Below are positions 1-5,875 of a stretch of 5,875 nucleotides of DNA, in pieces. The DNA comes from a virus. The notes beneath the pieces are model-generated. The model saw nothing but the letters and a program-made list of their open reading frames with translations, searched no databases and was not told the DNA's origin. The position numbers were made by a program, and so were the translations under genes. Position 1 is the first letter of the stretch. The number at the start of each line of letters is the position of its first letter. The stretch is from UHGV virus genome UHGV-0260700. One strand, written 5' to 3'.

Positions 1-206
1 GGTTTCATGGGCAGAGCTTTGATCTTAATAAAACGCAAGTTCAGACTCACCGTGCGAGATTACGAAAAATCGGTATTGATATTGCTCAAAAATGCAATAT
101 TGCTAAGTTCTCTCCGGTTATCATGAAAGAAAGCCGCGAAATTCATGTTTCACAATGCGTTATTCCAGACTGGTATATTAAACCTTCTCATTTACGTGTA
201 GCTTAA
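1..206 (+). CDS. 3' end of replication initiator gene (gII, with nested gX), partial, start outside window
   Basis: Frame starting at position 3 is open to TAA at 204..206 (67 codons, ends ...DWYIKPSHLRVA). Assigned by synteny only, immediately upstream of the gV-position gene; I did not recognise the sequence itself. Confidence 0.55.
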   Translation, partial: FHGQSFDLNKTQVQTHRARLRKIGIDIAQKCNIAKFSPVIMKESREIHVSQCVIPDWYIKPSHLRVA

Positions 207-222
207 AACAGGAATATTAATT

Positions 223-540
223 ATGTCTCACTACGGATTATTTGTTAAAGGTAAAATGCTTGGTTCGCGCCAGCGCAATAAGATGAATAGTGATTTAGTT
301 TATAATGAAATTGGCGTCGGCATGGAAAAGCCTGATGGTTTTGGCGGCACGAAAACAGAACAATTAATTATTCGTGTTTCTTCTTCTCTCGTTAAGGCTG
401 GCGTAATGAATCAGGCTAATAGCCTTATTGGTAAACTGGTTCAGGTTCCTGTCTATGCTAAAGCATGGTCTTTTGACGGAAAGGATGGCATTACATACAA
501 CCTTTCTAATGATGGTGGTATTAGCGAAATAAAGGTTTGA
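223..540 (+). CDS. Putative ssDNA-binding protein at the gV position (105 aa)
   Basis: ORF 223..540 with AGGA 9 nt upstream of ATG; sits between the replication gene end and gVII/gIX/gVIII as gV does in Ff phages. Longer than Ff gVp (87 aa) and no similarity to M13 or IKe gVp that I can see; function is by position only. Confidence 0.55.
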   Translation: MSHYGLFVKGKMLGSRQRNKMNSDLVYNEIGVGMEKPDGFGGTKTEQLIIRVSSSLVKAGVMNQANSLIGKLVQVPVYAKAWSFDGKDGITYNLSNDGGISEIKV

Positions 541-542
541 CT

Positions 543-629
543 ATGGATGATGTTATTCAGGTTTTGATAGCGTCTGGCATCGTTATTTCTTTTGGCCTCG
601 GCGCGATTACTGCGGGGGTCTTTCGTTAA
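543..629 (+). CDS. VII: Minor coat protein pVII-like (28 aa, MDDVIQVLIASGIVISFGLGAITAGVFR)
   Basis: Not in the ORF track (too short). ATG at 543 three nt after the gV stop, AAGG upstream; small hydrophobic peptide like M13 pVII (33 aa); stop TAA 627..629 overlaps the next start. Confidence 0.6.
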   Translation: MDDVIQVLIASGIVISFGLGAITAGVFR

Positions 630-724
630 TGTATATCGTTTATTTCTTCGGGGCTTATACCTTTGGTTTTGCCCTTTTCTATGCGGTCGGTTCATTTAAA
701 TCATTTTCTGACCGATTAATGTAA
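629..724 (+). CDS. IX: Minor coat protein pIX-like (31 aa, MYIVYFFGAYTFGFALFYAVGSFKSFSDRLM)
   Basis: Not in the ORF track. ATG 629..631 overlaps the gVII stop as TAATG; hydrophobic peptide ending ...DRLM, compare M13 pIX ...FTRLMETSS; stop TAA 722..724. Confidence 0.6.
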   Translation: MYIVYFFGAYTFGFALFYAVGSFKSFSDRLM

Positions 725-743
725 CCTTAATGGAGTTATTTCT

Positions 744-986
744 ATGAAAATTCTGTCTACTGTTAAATCTAAAGTTGCTCTTGCTTCAACTGCGCTTTTT
801 GTTTCTGCAAGTTCTTTTGCGGCTGACGGCGCTACAGGCGGTACTGATTATGCAGGTCAGGCAATGGACGCTTTGTTGACTCAGGCAAATGATCTCATTG
901 GTAAAGTATGGCCTGTTGTTGTTGCTGTAGTTGGCGCAGGCCTGGCTATTCGTCTTTTTAAAAAGTTCTCTTCCAAAGCAGTTTGA
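744..986 (+). CDS. VIII: Major coat protein pVIII precursor (80 aa)
   Basis: GGAG 8 nt upstream of ATG; signal peptide ending SFA followed by an acidic amphipathic N-terminus, a hydrophobic core (VWPVVVAVVGAGLAI) and a basic C-terminus RLFKKFSSKAV, the last matching the IKe coat protein C-terminus and close to M13 (KLFKKFTSKAS). Confidence 0.92.
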   Translation: MKILSTVKSKVALASTALFVSASSFAADGATGGTDYAGQAMDALLTQANDLIGKVWPVVVAVVGAGLAIRLFKKFSSKAV

Positions 987-1001
987 TTTCCATTTTACAC
1001 A

Positions 1002-1020
1002 GGGGCAGATTCTGCCCCTT
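1002..1020 (+). terminator. Hairpin terminator after gVIII
   Basis: GGGGCA(1002..1007) / TGCCCC(1013..1018) stem with loop GATTC, followed by TT; the same position as the strong terminator after gene VIII in Ff phages. The T-tract is short. Confidence 0.45.
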
Positions 1021-1037
1021 CATCTAAGCGGGTCATT

Positions 1038-2252
1038 ATGAAACGCAAATTATTAGCCCTTTTATTTATTATTTCTCCAGCTTCTCATGCTGCTATATGG
1101 GATAGTTTAAGCCAAAGCACTATGGAGGTTGATGTTTGGTCTGTAAGAAACGAGACCACACATAAACAATATATAAATTCTGATATGCTTGCTTCTGGTT
1201 GTTCTCAAGCAAAAGAAAAGGCTAACGATTTTTTCACGAGAACCAAATCAATTTTTCAGGATGTGTATCCGCCAAATGCTGAGTATAGATTAGTCCTTGA
1301 TGATTCTTGTTCGTTTAGTTTGCCACCGGGCGAAAAAGATAGCTCTTGGAGAATAGAGACTACAATTAATGCAGATGTTCAAGTTTCAGTTCCTGATGAA
1401 ACATCACCCGAACCTACACCAGAAGAAGTTTGTCAGACTAAACAACCTGAAGATGGTGTATTTAATAATGTTTTTTCTGATTCTGGCAATCGTTATATCA
1501 ATTATGATGGTTGTGAGTATGAAGCAACAGGGGTAATTGTTTGTCAAAGTGACGGTACTGTTTGTGCTGCTACGTGGAAACCAACTGGGCGTGTTTCAGA
1601 TGGTTCACATAATTCATCATCACCTGCCGATGATAATAATGATAATGGTTCAGAAAATGGTGGGTCAGAGGGTGGGGATGATGGTTCTGGCGGTGGTAAC
1701 AATAATTCAGGGGGGAGTTCTGGCGGCTCTTCATTAAGTAAGCAGGATATGATTGACGCAGTTAACTCCGGTGTATCTGGGGCTTCGTCTAATGTTGCTG
1801 ATGAGATAAGAAAGAAACTCTCTGAGCCTGACACGAGCTTTCAGGATAAAGAACATGCTGACGCGCAAAAATCTAAATACCTAAGTGATATAACTGATTC
1901 CCTTAACAATATTACACGTGGTGCTGGACGTTATGCAGATCCATCCCGTGGTGATTATTATGGGCAAGGTGATTCTGCTTTAGATAGTGCTACAAGCCTT
2001 GCAGAAAGCAACCTGGGTATTTCTAAAGATTCCAATGGGATTTGGGATTTATTTTTAAATGAAACTAATGCCTTGCCAAATGGTGATGGTTGTTCTGATT
2101 TTATTATGTTTCCCGGAGAAATTTACCAGATAGATATTCAATGCGATAAGTTGCAGTCAATTAAAGATGCACTTTCATGGGTGTTTTACTGCATGACATT
2201 TTGGTATGTCTTTACTTCATTAACATCCTTGCTTAGAAAAGGGAGTGAATAA
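1038..2252 (+). CDS. III: Minor coat / adsorption protein pIII (404 aa)
   Basis: Signal peptide [18 protein letters not shown]; internal motif [34 protein letters not shown] resembling the M13 N1 (TolA-binding) motif DRYANYEGCLWNATGVVVCTGDETQCYGTWVPIG; Gly/Ser/Asn/Asp linker; C-terminus [22 protein letters not shown]...[24 protein letters not shown] resembling the M13 pIII C-terminus. Confidence 0.92.
1590..1727 (+). repeat. Low-complexity Gly/Ser/Asn/Asp-rich linker region inside gIII
   Basis: Residues about 185..230 of pIII ([44 protein letters not shown]) encoded by repetitive ggt/ggc/aat/gat-rich DNA; this produces the artefactual ORFs on both strands in the track. Confidence 0.6.
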
Positions 2253-2593
2253 TGCCGTTCCTATTGGGTATACCTGCATTGCTTAGATTTCTTATCGGTC
2301 TTGTTCCATTATCCCTTGGATATATTGCAAGTTTCTTAGCTCGCTTGGCGACTAAAACAGGAATAATTGCCTTTGCTCTGGTTACGTTAATCACATCTAC
2401 GGTCTTGTTGTTAGTTCAATATTTATCAGAGATTACTTTTAGTAGCCTTCCTGCTGACTTTTCTCATTTAATAGCATCTGTATTACCTGATCATTTTCAT
2501 GCCTGCGTAAATGTCATTATGGTTACTCGAATTAGTGTATTGATTTTCGATTTAAAAGAAAAATTTCTTGATTATGCAAACAGGGTGATTTAA
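2252..2593 (+). CDS. VI: Minor coat protein pVI (113 aa)
   Basis: Start overlaps the gIII stop (TAATG). [17 protein letters not shown]... aligns with M13 pVI MPVLLGIPLLLRFLGFLL... over its length. Confidence 0.85.
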   Translation: MPFLLGIPALLRFLIGLVPLSLGYIASFLARLATKTGIIAFALVTLITSTVLLLVQYLSEITFSSLPADFSHLIASVLPDHFHACVNVIMVTRISVLIFDLKEKFLDYANRVI

Positions 2594-3688
2594 ATGGCGG
2601 TTCATGTAGTAACAGGTAAATTAGGCTCAGGCAAGACACTTGTTAGTGTTTCCAGAATACAGGAGAGACTTGCTAAGGGTTGTCCTGTTGCCACTAATCT
2701 TGACCTTAAATTGCATAATATGCCTATGGTTGGGCGTTATGCGAAAAAAACGCGCGTTATTCGCGTTCCTGACAAACCTTCATTAAATGATTTGCTGGCT
2801 ATTGGCATTGGAAACACATCTTACGATGAATCCCGTAATGGCCTCCTTGTACTTGATGAATGTGGTACTTGGTTTAATTCCCGCTCATGGGGTGATAAAG
2901 ACAGACAACCTGTTATTGACTGGTTTTTACATGCCAGAAAATTAGGCTGGGATATTATATTTTTGATTCAGGATATTTCGATAATGGATAAGCAAGCTCG
3001 TTTGGCGCTTGCTGAGCATGTTGTTTATTGTCGCCGTTCAGATAAATTAAACATTCCTTTTGTTGGCTCCATTATGAATTTGGTTTCAGGGGCACGATTT
3101 TCTTTACCAAAGGTACACTTTGGCATTGTCAAATATGGTGATAATGTTAATTCAATCACTGTTGATAAATGGATATATACAGGAAAATCTCTTTATTCTG
3201 CTTACAATACCAAACAAGCGTTCACAGATAATTATCCTCATGGCGCATTTTCGCTTTTGCCACCATTTATCACGCACGGTCAATTTTCTGTTCACAGAGG
3301 ATTTAATTATTATATGCGCCTCACTAAAATTTATTTTCGCAAATCGAACCGTCTTATATTAATGCTTTCTTTTTTGGCGCTGGGGCTTGGGCTTGGTTTC
3401 TGGCTCCAGTCTGGAAAGAATGTTGATGAAATCTCAGCTATTAAATCTGCTTATGCTGAACAGGCGAGGGCGGTAACGCCTGATTCGTCCAGTGACTTAC
3501 CCCGACTTTCTATTAATTCTTTTTCACAACTTGGCTTTGACGTTTCCGTTACGTTTGTTGATGCTAAAGGTATGAAATATCAGTATTTTGATTTGATTAA
3601 AGATGGTTATTCCGTTGATATTAAAGATGCCTGTCGTATTGTTATTAGAAAAGGTCGTTATTTACAGACTGTTACCTGTCAGGAGTAA
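2594..3688 (+). CDS. I: Assembly protein pI (Zot-like ATPase, 364 aa)
   Basis: ATG directly follows the gVI stop (TAAATG). N-terminus MAVHVVTGKLGSGKTLVSV with Walker A GKLGSGKT, then LLVLDECGTWFN and WFLHARKLGWDIIFL, all near-identical to M13 pI; C-terminal membrane segment present. Confidence 0.95.
   Translation: MAVHVVTGKLGSGKTLVSVSRIQERLAKGCPVATNLDLKLHNMPMVGRYAKKTRVIRVPDKPSLNDLLAIGIGNTSYDESRNGLLVLDECGTWFNSRSWGDKDRQPVIDWFLHARKLGWDIIFLIQDISIMDKQARLALAEHVVYCRRSDKLNIPFVGSIMNLVSGARFSLPKVHFGIVKYGDNVNSITVDKWIYTGKSLYSAYNTKQAFTDNYPHGAFSLLPPFITHGQFSVHRGFNYYMRLTKIYFRKSNRLILMLSFLALGLGLGFWLQSGKNVDEISAIKSAYAEQARAVTPDSSSDLPRLSINSFSQLGFDVSVTFVDAKGMKYQYFDLIKDGYSVDIKDACRIVIRKGRYLQTVTCQE
3314..3688 (+). CDS. 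XI: Putative pXI, in-frame internal initiation product of gI (124 aa)
   Basis: In-frame ATG at 3314 (MRLTKIYFRKSNRLILMLSFLALG...) just before the membrane segment, corresponding to the M13 pXI start (MKLTKIYLKKFSRVL...); GAGG about 13 nt upstream. Inferred by analogy only. Confidence 0.5.
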   Translation: MRLTKIYFRKSNRLILMLSFLALGLGLGFWLQSGKNVDEISAIKSAYAEQARAVTPDSSSDLPRLSINSFSQLGFDVSVTFVDAKGMKYQYFDLIKDGYSVDIKDACRIVIRKGRYLQTVTCQE

Positions 3689-3695
3689 TATTATT

Positions 3696-4961
3696 ATGCG
3701 CTCTGTTATTGTTGCTTTTTTATTTGCCTGTTCATTCTGCGTTTCTGCTGAAACTGTTAATTTAAATAATTCATCTGTTCGCTCATTTGTTCAGTGGTAT
3801 TCTTCAAAAACTGGCAAGCCTGTTATTGTTAATCCTGATGTTAAAGGAAACGTAACCGTATTTAATGCTGATGTTAATCCAACAAATATTGATGATTTCT
3901 TTAAGTCTGTTCTGAATGCTAACGGGTTTGTCATGCTTTCTGGCAATCCTGCGGTAGTCTCTTTGCCGTCTAAATTACCTTCACAGATGGTTTCGGGTTC
4001 CGATGATTCTGATAACCAGTCTTATGATACTTTTCCTTCTGAGCCATCTTACCAGCCAGTACCTGTGGCGCTTACGGTCAGAAATTTTAAGCTGACAAAA
4101 GTTAGATCGTCCGATGTTCAGCAACTGGTTAAAATTTATCTTGATTCTAATGGCGGTGGTAATGTCGTGGATTATCCAGGCAATAACTCGCTGATTGTTT
4201 CTGCGCCTGACGAGCTGCTGCCGGTTCTGTCCGATTTTATCAATTCTGTGGATGTTGCCCGTGACCAAGTATTGATTCAGTCGCTGATGTTTGAAACCAG
4301 CCTATCCGATGGTGTTGATTTGTCGTTTGCTGCGGGTTCTGCGTCTGGCCATAAGGTGGCGGGGGGCTTTAATACTTCTGCGCTCGGCAGTGCGCTTTCC
4401 ACGGCTGGCGGCTCTTTTGGTATTTTTGATGGTAACGTACTGGCTTTGTCTCTGCGTGCCGTTCAGAGCAATTCACGCTCTAAGGTGATTTCAACGCCGC
4501 GCATCCTTACTCAGTCCGGTCAGACGGGTTACATTTCTGTAGGTAAGAACGTGCCGTTTATCACCGGAAAGGTAACGGGCGAATCTGCCGGGGTAAATAA
4601 TCCGTTCCAGACTATCGAACGTCATGATGTGGGTGTTTCTCTCAAGGTAACGCCTGTTGTCATGGGTAACGGGCAATTAGTTCTGACTATCGACACTCGC
4701 GCCGATTCAATCAGCAATGATGACCAGGCATCCGATATTATTACTAATCAGCGCCAGATTCAGACTACTGTTCAGATTAAGGATGGTCAGACATTGTTGC
4801 TTGGTGGTCTTATTGATTCATCTTCCAGTAATGCTGACCGTTCAGTGCCTTTTATCAGTAAAATTCCTCTTATCGGCTGGCTTTTCACGAGTAAGGCTGA
4901 CAGCAATGAGCAGCGCATCATGTATGTTCTCCTGACCGCCCATATCATTCGCGCGCTGTAA
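3696..4961 (+). CDS. IV: Secretin pIV, outer-membrane export channel (421 aa)
   Basis: AGGAG 10 nt upstream of ATG 3696. Signal peptide MRSVIVAFLFACSFCVSA; strong similarity to M13 pIV throughout (VPFITGKVTGESAGVNNPFQTIER, DGQTLLLGGL, VPFISKIPLIGWLF). The track ORF from 3603 extends upstream into gI and is not the real start. Confidence 0.95.
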   Translation: MRSVIVAFLFACSFCVSAETVNLNNSSVRSFVQWYSSKTGKPVIVNPDVKGNVTVFNADVNPTNIDDFFKSVLNANGFVMLSGNPAVVSLPSKLPSQMVSGSDDSDNQSYDTFPSEPSYQPVPVALTVRNFKLTKVRSSDVQQLVKIYLDSNGGGNVVDYPGNNSLIVSAPDELLPVLSDFINSVDVARDQVLIQSLMFETSLSDGVDLSFAAGSASGHKVAGGFNTSALGSALSTAGGSFGIFDGNVLALSLRAVQSNSRSKVISTPRILTQSGQTGYISVGKNVPFITGKVTGESAGVNNPFQTIERHDVGVSLKVTPVVMGNGQLVLTIDTRADSISNDDQASDIITNQRQIQTTVQIKDGQTLLLGGLIDSSSSNADRSVPFISKIPLIGWLFTSKADSNEQRIMYVLLTAHIIRAL

Positions 4962-4965
4962 TGGG

Positions 4966-4999
4966 TTGCGGGATGGGTGCGTTAAGCCCCGTCCCGTAA
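4966..4999 (+). other. Imperfect hairpin immediately after gIV; candidate packaging signal and/or gIV terminator
   Basis: Arms 4969..4977 (cgggatggg) and 4988..4996 (cccgtcccg) pair with one T-G mismatch, loop about 10 nt; occupies the position of hairpin A (packaging signal) in the Ff intergenic region but is much shorter. Confidence 0.4.
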
Positions 5000-5039
5000 A
5001 CCATGAAGCGGCATCGTGTTTTCACCGTCTGTTTGTATT

Positions 5040-5220
5040 CTTTTACGCTTTTCTTCCTGTCTGCGTTCTCTGTGGCCTGATTCGTCCAGCAGAATGGCGG
5101 GGGTTCCCTTTAGGGTTCCGCTATTGTGCTTGACGACACGTTGCAAGATAACCTTATTGCGGGGTGATGGTTCACGCAGTGGGCCATCGCCCTGTAAAGC
5201 AGGTTTTTGTTTTTTGGTGT
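5040..5220 (+). other. Intergenic-region segment homologous to the Ff minus-strand replication origin
   Basis: 5099..5120 GGGGGTTCCCTTTAGGGTTCCG versus f1 GGGGGCTCCCTTTAGGGTTCCG; 5162..5194 GGGTGATGGTTCACGCAGTGGGCCATCGCCCTG versus f1 GGGTGATGGTTCACGTAGTGGGCCATCGCCCTG (one mismatch), followed by GGTTTTT. f1 sequence recalled from memory, not computed. Confidence 0.7.
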
Positions 5221-5252
5221 TACGTGGTCTGATACTGCGGGGATTTCCGAGG

Positions 5253-5270
5253 ATGCGCACTGGTGCGCAT
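5253..5270. repeat. Perfect 8-bp inverted repeat with 2-nt spacer overlapping the XerC arm of dif
   Basis: ATGCGCAC (5253..5260), spacer TG, GTGCGCAT (5263..5270); the arms are exact reverse complements. Confidence 0.8.
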
Positions 5271-5289
5271 AATGTATATTATGTTAAAT
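5262..5289. other. dif: dif chromosome-dimer resolution site (XerC/XerD target), prophage right attachment junction
   Basis: GGTGCGCATAATGTATATTATGTTAAAT is identical to the canonical 28-bp Escherichia coli dif (XerC arm GGTGCGCATAA, spacer TGTATA, XerD arm TTATGTTAAAT). Phage-like sequence ends here and the following DNA has host character. Confidence 0.85.
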
Positions 5290-5484
5290 TGAATTTATGA
5301 CGCCCAATACAGGCTTACTCCCTTGACTCATAATGCATCCCTCGCCTTTTCTGCACGCCTTCCATCGTGCCCTGTGTGAATTCTGCAAACTGTTGGCGGT
5401 TATCCTGCGTCAGATTTCACGTAGCGCACGCATTAAAAACCCGGCCACTGTGACCGGATAAGCCGACGGGACCTGCGTTTTTCA

Positions 5485-5875
5485 CTATCTGGCGGCAATT
5501 ACCGCATCTGCAATTTCCACAAAACCAGCACCTCCCGGGCCACGGGTAATCCACTGCGGAGGTTTCGGGATTTGATCAAGGTAATCTGATACCGTGCTCA
5601 CTCCAACCGTATGTTCAAAGAATGAAAACATCGGCGCATCATTCGTCGAGTCGCCGCTATACAATACGGCAGAACGTTCGGCATCAATGTCGAGATCGTA
5701 AAAATCCCTGAGCACTCGTCGGGCCATAGATAACTTGTCATATTCTCCAGACCAGCCAAGAATCCAGAGATTGTTTACGGTGGTTGTAGCACCTGCTTGC
5801 GTCAATGCGTTAAGTATTAATGAACACTGATGGGCTTCTGGCGGTTTAGCAAAGGCAATGGACGTCATCCTGAAA
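5485..5875 (-). CDS. HAD-superfamily hydrolase (Cof-type phosphatase-like), C-terminal part; start lies beyond the window end
   Basis: Minus-strand ORF ending at TAG (5485..5487), open to the window edge; contains the HAD motif-IV-like YSGDSTNDAPMF. Codon usage and GC differ from the phage genes. Confidence 0.65.
   Translation of the reverse strand, partial: FRMTSIAFAKPPEAHQCSLILNALTQAGATTTVNNLWILGWSGEYDKLSMARRVLRDFYDLDIDAERSAVLYSGDSTNDAPMFSFFEHTVGVSTVSDYLDQIPKPPQWITRGPGGAGFVEIADAVIAAR

Follow-up and report, generated by a model that had tools for sequence, protein, structure and literature searches.

Organization of the locus

A 5,875-nucleotide stretch of the virus genome UHGV-0260700 (the window, by which we mean the whole of the DNA analyzed) contains part of a filamentous prophage that is joined to the chromosome of Citrobacter koseri at the dif site. 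Positions 1-5272 are the right-hand 5.3 kb of an inovirus prophage whose full unit, measured in sibling copies, is ~7,058 bp. We regard it as very probable that this is an IKe-like prophage integrated by XerCD and belonging to the known UPφ-like kind, and on the sequence evidence we take XerCD-mediated integration at dif to be established. The window would then represent the right-hand three quarters of a recently mobile, intact filamentous prophage of C. koseri, a XerCD-exploiting integrative element (IMEX) that uses the host's XerC and XerD and has no recombinase of its own.

The genes of the prophage form an unbroken run on the plus strand, from the 3′ end of gII through V, VII, IX, VIII, III, VI, I and IV, after which come an intergenic region, dif and the C. 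koseri chromosome (Table 1). This order (II/X-V-VII-IX-VIII-III-VI-I-IV), derived from the map of open reading frames (ORFs) and from Pfam, agrees with the annotations of IKe and M13, and the complete genes of the window are all intact and without frameshifts. The gene III protein (g3p) is laid out as a pilus-binding domain, a TolA-binding N1-like domain, a Gly/Ser/Asn-rich linker and a C-terminal anchor. Complete sibling prophages add only two small ORFs, of 88 and 62 amino acids (orf88 and orf62), and supply gII at its full length of 371 amino acids (8054-9169 of L006, the contig of one sibling copy). Every ORF of the window is accounted for, and neither the ORF list nor Pfam reveals an integrase or other recombinase in it, as is characteristic of an IMEX. 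Two ORFs of 92-94 amino acids (4982-5260, minus strand; 5016-5300, plus strand) coincide in part with the minus origin and with dif, lack any homologue whose function is known and were rejected as spurious.

A first-pass annotation had read the window as an Ff/IKe-like genome of canonical gene order lying in a chromosome, with no integrase and with its end exactly at a dif 28-mer. Pfam, the comparison with IKe and the C. koseri flank bear out this description of the genome, and the match to dif was reproduced in none of 200 shuffled sequences.

Scans of the window for Rfam families and tRNAs found none, and a consensus scan for promoters and terminators, which gave no more matches than shuffled sequence, was not used as evidence. 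The candidate stem-loop that follows gVIII occupies the position of the annotated stem-loop terminator of IKe (2031-2050); the scan missed it because its T tail is short.

Table 1. Features of the window and the evidence for each
Feature	Position	Strand	Evidence and remarks
gII, 3′ end, and overlapping gene X (replication initiator)	3-206	+	Last 67 codons and stop; Pfam G2P_X_C, E 2.9e-17
Gene V, single-stranded DNA-binding protein, 105 aa	223-540	+	Pfam Putative_G5P, E 4e-40; 45% identity to I2-2 gV
Gene VII, minor coat protein, 28 aa	543-629	+	Pfam Inovirus_G7P_2; 74% identity to IKe and I2-2
Gene IX, minor coat protein, 31 aa	629-724	+	53-57% identity to IKe/I2-2 (IKe 57%); PHROG minor coat family phrog_28333
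Gene VIII, major coat protein precursor, 80 aa	744-986	+	Pfam Phage_coatGP8, E 5e-20; 58-60% identity to IKe/I2-2, 43% to M13
Candidate terminator stem-loop, GGGGCAG-ATT-CTGCCCC, then TT	1002-1020	+	Directly 3′ of gVIII; read by eye
Gene III, attachment protein, 404 aa	1038-2252	+	Pfam G3P_pilus-bind (aa 38-118) and Phage_Coat_A (aa 127-169)
Gene VI, minor coat protein, 113 aa	2252-2593	+	Pfam DUF5455 (gVI position); 47-48% identity to IKe/I2-2, 38% to M13
Gene I, assembly ATPase, Zot family, 364 aa	2594-3688	+	Pfam Zot, E 5e-40
Gene IV, outer-membrane secretin, 421 aa	3696-4961	+	Pfam Secretin, N0 and Secretin_N domains
Candidate packaging (morphogenetic) signal, long imperfect hairpin	4951-5012	+	Overlaps gIV end/stop codon
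Putative minus-strand (complementary-strand) origin, Ff/IKe-like	5053-5219	+	Similarity to IKe and M13
Phage-borne XerC arm, GGTGCGCATAA	5262-5272	+	Last phage-derived bases
Reconstituted dif (attR), GGTGCGCATAATGTATATTATGTTAAAT	5262-5289	+	Exact E. coli dif 28-mer; 0/200 shuffles matched
C. koseri chromosome	5290-5875	.	DNA 98% identical to C. koseri NCTC10786
Terminator-like hairpin of HAD-IIB gene	5439-5459		Consensus terminator scan
HAD-IIB hydrolase gene, 3′ part	5485-5875	-	Protein 100% identical to C. koseri NCTC10786
aa, amino acids.

The right end of the prophage is a composite dif made up of the phage XerC arm, the host central region TGTATA and the host XerD arm TTATGTTAAAT. The flank was matched to C. 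koseri by a peptide-based scan with the HAD fragment, of which one Escherichia coli plasmid copy is annotated as an HAD-IIB family hydrolase; a 37-mer spanning dif and the flank had no exact match in genome contigs because of single-nucleotide polymorphisms in the flank. In C. koseri NCTC10786 the site is empty: its dif, AGTGCGCATAATGTATATTATGTTAAAT, of which AGTGCGCATAA is the XerC arm, is followed by the window's flank at 98% identity. Homology of the window to this empty site begins at 5263, i.e., at dif position 2, and the G at 5262 is therefore the phage's own base.

We also note a perfect 8-bp inverted repeat, ATGCGCAC-TG-GTGCGCAT (5253-5270), which is built from phage sequence and the phage XerC arm and is kept at all right ends and tandem junctions. 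It may act as a competing or regulatory hairpin, or may provide extra XerC-arm symmetry.

Copies of the prophage in other chromosomes

The exact g3p of the window is present in 110 index blocks of the public collection and its gV in 81. Copies at least 99.8% identical in nucleotide sequence to window positions 1-5289 occur in at least eight distinct chromosomal right-flank contexts. These include E. coli, where the prophage lies between hipBA (left) and fimbrial genes (right), as well as several further enterobacterial chromosomes and one metagenome contig. Homology among the copies always ends at the last base of dif (5289), and the XerC arm GGTGCGCATAA is constant at the right end of every copy, regardless of host. 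The left end of the sibling copies is a hybrid site, in which an 11-bp XerC arm is followed by phage sequence beginning TGTGTGACTCGTTATGT... This left arm is host-specific, taking the form GGTA-, AGTA-, AGTG- or GGTG-CGCATAA (GGTACGCATAA, AGTACGCATAA, AGTGCGCATAA and GGTGCGCATAA among the copies). The element thus has the arrangement of an IMEX, with an exact dif on the right, a host XerC arm joined to phage TGTGTGACTCG... on the left (as seen in the copies at least 99.8% identical) and an empty site in a related genome.

None of the 18 contigs fetched has the C. koseri flank, and the left end of the window prophage is therefore taken from the nearly identical copies in other hosts. The predicted order in the source genome is C. 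koseri flank, AGTGCGCATAA, TGTGTGACTCGTTATGTTGAAA, a GC stem-loop, an inverted site, orf88/orf62 (minus strand) and gII, and the circular form is predicted to carry the attP junction ...GATGCGCACTGGTGCGCATAATGTGTGACTCG...

Tandem arrays are present in two complete chromosomes, with at least three copies in OW967014.1 and at least two in CM132669.1. The sequence at the junctions between copies, ...GATGCGCACT-GGTGCGCATAA-TGTGTGACTCG-TTATGTTGAAA..., is that of the attP expected from a circularized prophage. The first-pass annotation had recognized the signature of a XerCD-exploiting element in the window and had suggested a search for a second dif-like site on the left, for an empty site and for a circularized attP junction. 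All three were found, the first as the hybrid site of the sibling loci, the second in C. koseri NCTC10786 and the third, as sequence, at the tandem junctions, so that the reading of the signature holds. Because copies at least 99.8% identical lie at dif in at least eight contexts, with host-specific left arms and in tandem arrays, the prophage appears to have spread horizontally in recent times.

Different elements can also accumulate at the same site. In one E. coli contig (L002), a second and unrelated filamentous prophage (16300-21215; Rep_trans initiator, DUF2523 and Zot) lies directly after a UPφ-like prophage, and the locus is an array of different IMEXs at dif.

Structure of the attachment site

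Comparison of the junctions places the crossover between dif positions 4 and 15: position 4 still varies with the host at the left end, and at position 15 phage and dif differ for the first time. The interval so defined (dif positions 5-14) contains the XerC cleavage site, at the border of arm and central region.

Site 1 of attP consists of the perfect XerC arm GGTGCGCATAA, an 11-nt spacer that starts with TGT and the XerD-like arm TTATGTTGAAA. The XerD-like arm, either TTATGTTGAAA or TTATGTTGAAT, agrees with dif at 9-10 of 11 bases and lies 11 nt from the XerC arm in every variant. With the canonical spacing of 6 bp, the XerD side is a poor match, ACTCGTTATGT agreeing at 5 of 11 bases in a direct reading. 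Downstream of site 1 there is a GC-rich stem-loop and then a second dif-like site, in inverted orientation and with a 5-nt spacer (...TTTAGCATAA-CGTCA-TTATGCGCATT).

As (+) strand single-stranded DNA (ssDNA), attP is predicted to fold with a free energy of -35.8 kcal/mol (z = -8.35; one variant has z = -5.9). The predicted structure is a forked hairpin in which an asymmetric internal loop separates the XerC-arm duplex from the XerD-arm duplex, the latter being followed by an extension stem and a loop. In an alignment of seven attP variants from relatives, 96.5% of pair cells are kept paired, as against 29-55% when the 3′ partners are slid. Compensatory double changes affect five pairs, four of them contributed by one variant with a wholly different stem sequence. 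The spacer lengths of 11 and 5 nt are conserved in all seven variants, and the first three spacer bases, TGT as in dif, are invariant.

Mechanism of integration

In the CTXφ class of IMEXs, the substrate for integration is the folded (+) ssDNA; XerC carries out one strand-pair exchange, whose product is resolved by replication, integration is irreversible and progeny are made by rolling-circle replication from tandem prophages (PMC4246890). The features of that class recur here: an inverted pair of dif-like sites and a dif-mimicking (+) ssDNA hairpin, the latter as a computational prediction, and tandem arrays with intact attP at the internal junctions (OW967014.1 and CM132669.1). We consider a CTX-type ssDNA route to be the most likely mechanism, and probably the correct one.

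According to this model, the inverted sites of the packaged (+) strand would pair to give a dif-mimicking forked hairpin like those of CTXφ and Ypfφ/CUS-1φ, and integration would proceed as follows: (i) host XerC would exchange one pair of strands at the border of XerC arm and central region; (ii) the resulting junction would be resolved by replication; (iii) the left end would come to consist of the host XerC arm and phage sequence, and the right end of the phage XerC arm joined to the host central region and XerD arm, this right fusion being a functional dif, the 28-mer at 5262-5289; and (iv) the source of progeny ssDNA would probably be rolling-circle replication from tandem copies, not excision. 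Integration by such a pathway would be irreversible.

Several considerations weigh against this interpretation, or at least against its details. For this variant, dependence on XerC/XerD, the single-stranded integrating form and virion production are all read from sequence. The left junction, site 2 of attP and the plus origin lie outside the window and are taken from copies at least 99.8% identical. The covariation set holds only seven sequences, with four of the five compensatory pairs coming from a single divergent variant, and the attP structure was derived from the same sequences that were used to assess covariation. Finally, the GC stem resembles a bidirectional terminator that would serve the reverse-oriented accessory genes, and ColV plasmids carry a copy of it without an intact site 1; for these reasons, conservation of the GC stem may in part have another cause.

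An alternative scenario is that of the VGJφ class, in which the double-stranded replicative form would integrate through a XerC exchange between site 1 and dif, with later XerCD excision being possible. The geometry of the observed junctions fits either route. The XerC arm of site 1 is perfect, site 1 and the central region of dif have TGT in common, and VGJ-class sites likewise use XerC-only exchange with a non-homologous XerD side (PMC4246890). However, the XerD arm at the 6-bp spacing, ACTCGTTATGT, matches at only 5 of 11 positions, whereas the good XerD-like arm (9-10 of 11) stands 11 bp off in every variant, and such a spacing is reported to bar the use of CTXφ attP1 as double-stranded DNA. 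Moreover, the conserved inverted partner site and the compensatory stem would have no purpose in a double-stranded pathway, and the related Ypfφ/CUS-1φ module is classed as CTX-type. We therefore regard the double-stranded route as unlikely, although it deserves more weight than the alternatives taken up below, and continue to favor the ssDNA hairpin.

It could also be argued that the locus is a decayed, immobile prophage remnant that adjoins dif by chance. The window is cut off within gII and contains one junction only, filamentous prophages have often left relics at dif, and ColV plasmids carry attP-like relics too. This explanation is very improbable, in that the complete genes of the window are free of frameshifts, and complete 7.06-kb copies at least 99.8% identical lie at dif in at least eight contexts with host-specific left arms and tandem arrays. 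In addition, an identical g3p is found in 110 index blocks, and close relatives release DNase-protected phage DNA (PMC7307601).

Relationship to the UPφ viruses

Prophages of this general kind have been described before. Shapiro and Putonti (Virus Evol 2020; PMC7307601) reported UPφ901 and the UPφ viruses, which are IKe/I2-2-like prophages at dif, usually in tandem, in over 200 genomes of Enterobacterales. Their hosts are E. coli, S. enterica, K. pneumoniae, Y. enterocolitica and C. koseri (8 of 28 assemblies), and phage DNA was detected in DNase-treated culture supernatants, i.e., in a DNase-protected state (PMC7307601). The UPφ gII and gV are shared with Ypfφ, and the authors propose to place the UPφ viruses in Lineavirus and suggest that an integrating phage was ancestral to IKe and I2-2 (PMC7307601). 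Nine genes, among them the accessory genes h1 and h2, make up the core set that they used. The text of that paper makes no mention of attP, a hairpin or inverted sites.

The window prophage fits this description, as an IKe/I2-2-like prophage at the dif of an enterobacterial host that is on the published host list. The statement of the first-pass annotation that dif integration was not known from the Ff group is accordingly not supported, since the UPφ viruses, described in 2020, are of just this group (PMC7307601). A stronger version, in which the window phage would be the first Ff-group phage with a dif-integrating lifestyle and hence a new kind of element, could appeal to the lack of a dif-like attP in IKe, I2-2, M13 and If1, and to deposited phage genomes that match the window only over ~190 bp of gIV (~80%). 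It is nevertheless highly improbable, given that IKe/I2-2-like prophages at dif are on record from over 200 genomes, C. koseri included (PMC7307601), and that hundreds of complete E. coli genomes have relatives ~90% identical annotated at dif, alongside hipA.

One further possibility, that the locus is an artefact (contamination with an f1-ori phagemid or M13 vector, an assembly chimera or a misjoined episomal replicative form), is suggested by the resemblance of the intergenic stretch to the f1/M13 origin region but is excluded for all practical purposes, because identity to M13 is only 79% over 111 nt and 38-53% for the proteins, so that this is not laboratory phage DNA, and because the same junction recurs in independent isolate assemblies, complete chromosomes and a metagenome assembly, with host-specific left XerC arms, tandem attP junctions and an empty site in C. 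koseri NCTC10786. Of the vector or chimera signatures that the first-pass annotation had warned of, none was found.

With the UPφ viruses, the window-type phage shares an IKe/I2-2-like core in Ff order, integration at dif without an integrase, tandem arrays, the host range and accessory ORFs that lie reversed beside the left junction. Two UPφ-like prophages of E. coli (L001 and L002) have pI 97-99% and pIV 95-98% identical to those of the window phage. Nonetheless, the window phage is, as judged from these sequence comparisons, a mosaic sibling of UPφ901 and not UPφ901 itself. The UPφ901 unit is 7,560 bp long, compared with 7,058 bp for the window type. Core genes of UPφ901 are at least 98% identical even for distant members (PMC7307601), a level that the window phage does not reach when measured, as was done here, against GGGES-type relatives (which have a UPφ901-like g3p) rather than against the UPφ901 reference sequence. 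Relative to the GGGES type, pI and pIV are 95-99% identical, gVI 81% and gV 70-71%, and gII is either 74% identical or of another type with no match; the window g3p has no GGGES repeats, and identity over its N-terminal receptor domain is as low as 49%.

Gene content also differs. The window-type prophage has no homologues of the ORFs that L001 and L002 carry between gIV and dif, which are presumably h1/h2 (a label not confirmed against the UPφ901 reference); where the UPφ-like relatives have these h1/h2-like ORFs, the window phage has an Ff/IKe-like minus origin. The HTH_3 repressor-like ORF of the relatives likewise has no homologue in the window-type prophage, which has its own 88- and 62-amino-acid ORFs instead. 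In comparison with L002-type relatives, g3p (100% amino acid identity) and gVI are held in common, while gII (74%), gV (70%) and gVIII (87.5%) differ. Because g3p and gVI are shared with the L002 type while gII, gV and gVIII differ, and because the GGGES type has another N-terminal domain, recombination breakpoints can be placed around gene III. Judging by their sequences, the g3p variants probably differ in receptor specificity, and the different receptor domain of the window g3p implies a different host or pilus range.

The value of the window lies mainly in confirmation and refinement, namely that dif-integrating relatives of IKe, I2-2 and the Ff phages, published in 2020, are real, intact and widespread in clinical Enterobacterales. 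What is new is the mosaic variant, with its If1-type gII, different g3p N-terminal domain and lack of h1/h2-like ORFs, together with an explicit and testable model of attP for the UPφ group, which is absent from the original description. No new category of biology is opened by these findings.

Mosaic composition and the intergenic region

Among deposited phages, the nearest to the window phage are IKe and I2-2 (Lineavirus) together with the Erwinia PEar phages, and not f1 or M13. At the nucleotide level the relationship is distant: megablast against deposited phage genomes yields only ~80% identity over 190 bp of gIV (IKe and the PEar phages). At the protein level, the structural and assembly proteins are clearly homologous to those of IKe/I2-2, with identities of 64-65% for pI, 72-75% for pIV and ~41% for the C-terminal domain of g3p (pVII, pVIII, pIX and pVI are in Table 1); pI is 64% identical to that of the PEar phages. 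IKe has the same gene order and the same g3p domain order (pilus-binding, then TolA-binding), and its minus-origin region is 73% identical. IKe and I2-2 differ from the window phage in being episomal and in having neither a dif-like attP nor reverse-oriented accessory ORFs, and gII and gV of IKe are unrelated to those of the window phage at the level of BLAST.

The Ff phages (M13, f1, fd), strictly episomal and without an attP, are much farther away than IKe/I2-2. M13 shares the canonical order, with identities of 53% for pI and 52% for pIV (for pVIII and pVI see Table 1) and with an N1-like g3p segment that is 46% identical, but has no BLAST match for gII, gV, gVII or gIX and no detected similarity in the g3p C-terminal domain. 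If1 (Infulavirus) has a gII 73-76% identical to the window type, which has no match in IKe or M13; the remaining If1 genes are no closer than those of M13, and an attP is again lacking. For gV, 45% identity is found to I2-2 only, with no match in IKe, M13 or If1. A search for dif-like sites in IKe, I2-2, M13 and If1 gave nothing beyond short matches at chance level.

The replication module (gII/X, gV and plus origin) is hence not of the IKe/Ff type. Because the virion and assembly genes and the minus origin are Lineavirus-like, while the replication module comes from another inovirus lineage, the genome is a mosaic. The description of the phage as Ff-like in the first-pass annotation holds for the gene order, the virion and assembly genes and the minus origin; the closest affinity, however, is with IKe/I2-2 rather than f1/M13, and the If1-type gII, the gV and an If1/Ypfφ-like replication and integration module do not fit it.

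The 300 bp between gIV and dif are non-coding and have the makeup of an Ff/IKe-type intergenic region, with a packaging-like hairpin followed by similarity to a minus origin. The hairpin at 4951-5012 lies where morphogenetic signals are annotated in IKe (6141-6196) and I2-2 (2260-2330), and by analogy it would act as the packaging signal; as ssDNA, positions 4940-5060 are predicted to fold at -21.3 kcal/mol (z = -3.7). The segment at 5053-5219 is 73% identical to IKe 6305-6465, which spans the annotated minus-origin stem-loops, and 79% identical over 111 nt to M13 5640-5750. These similarities suggest that it works as the minus origin. Part of this minus-origin-like segment (5092-5194) also has ~200 matches of 76-79% identity on E. 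coli plasmids, some of which adjoin RepA4; presumably these are single-strand initiation signals related to the complementary-strand origins of filamentous phages.

Two elements outside the window, both upstream of gII in L006, may be mentioned here. A 50-nt element with two small hairpins (L006 7657-7706) is 96% identical to positions 5052-5101 of If1, which belong to its major intergenic region; the If1-type gII may use this element as its plus-strand origin. Directly upstream of gII (L006 7960-8050), repeated TTTCT(A/G/T)AGAA motifs flank a promoter-like TTGACA/TATAAA pair and are possibly an operator for the small reverse-oriented ORFs.

A portable integration module

Together with its adjoining small ORFs, attP appears to move independently of the virion genes. 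In E. coli PEC148, an inovirus of Ypf/CUS-like gene architecture is found in tandem at dif (L095 9001-18878). It shares with the window-type phage the module of attP, orf88 and orf62, at 89.5% nucleotide identity (99% at the amino acid level for orf88). By BLAST, it has no match to gV, VII, IX, VIII, III, VI or I of the window, and part of pIV is 31% identical. Because this phage has the module yet has unrelated structural genes, the integration module can be regarded as portable between inoviruses, and the sequence comparison points to modular exchange of a cassette for integration and regulation.

Fragments of the module are also present on plasmids. The 67-nt core of the attP hairpin (L006 7190-7256, comprising the XerD-like arm, the GC stem-loop and the inverted site) has ~900 matches on E. 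coli plasmids at ~94% identity. In the one ColV-type virulence plasmid that was inspected (L094 3001-3066, corresponding to NZ_CP069678.1 15644-15709), the core sits between a truncated IS200C tnpA and a gene of the STM4504/CBY_0614 family on the opposite strand, and upstream of it there is a degenerate CACTGG-CTCATTATAA that resembles the phage CACTGG-TGCGCATAA. The plasmid copies may be relics of an IMEX module consisting of attP and cargo.

A broader hypothesis, which we offer tentatively and judge somewhat more likely to fail than to hold, is that the window-type phage represents an undescribed recombinant lineage, combining IKe-like virion and assembly genes, an Ff-like minus origin, an If1-type initiator and a hairpin attP of the CTX/Ypfφ class. 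Under this hypothesis the cassette would be swapped by structurally unrelated inoviruses, with degenerate copies on ColV plasmids, and its portability would turn episomal Ff-like phages into dif-integrating ones; the lineage itself, with its new g3p receptor domain, would be spreading between enterobacterial genera at an identity of at least 99.8%. Independently of this hypothesis, the capacity to integrate is carried by a small module made up of the attP hairpin (with its 11- and 5-nt spacers), accessory ORFs and a matching initiator, and this module can be combined with different sets of virion genes.

Comparison with known integrating phages

Ypfφ of Yersinia pestis and CUS-1φ of E. coli O18:K1:H7 are listed as members of the CTX class (PMC4246890), and have inverted pairs of XerC/XerD sites, a dif reconstituted at the 3′ end and tandem prophages (PMC4266046). 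They resemble the window-type phage in these respects, including the intact 3′ dif, and in having accessory ORFs at both ends. They differ in that their structural and assembly genes are unrelated, a comparison made at the sequence level through L095 and, for Ypfφ itself, through its published description.

With CTXφ of Vibrio cholerae there is no sequence homology, and the two systems differ in the distance between the sites (90 bp in CTXφ, ~34 nt here) and in the enterobacterial hosts and lack of toxin cargo here. The architecture is nonetheless closely parallel. The attP1 and attP2 sites of CTXφ are in inverted orientation and have central regions of 12 bp and 5-7 bp, respectively (PMC4246890), i.e., one too long and one too short, and the corresponding spacers of the window-type phage are 11 and 5 nt. 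Common to both are a forked hairpin of the (+) ssDNA, predicted here, a crossover on the XerC side and tandem prophages.

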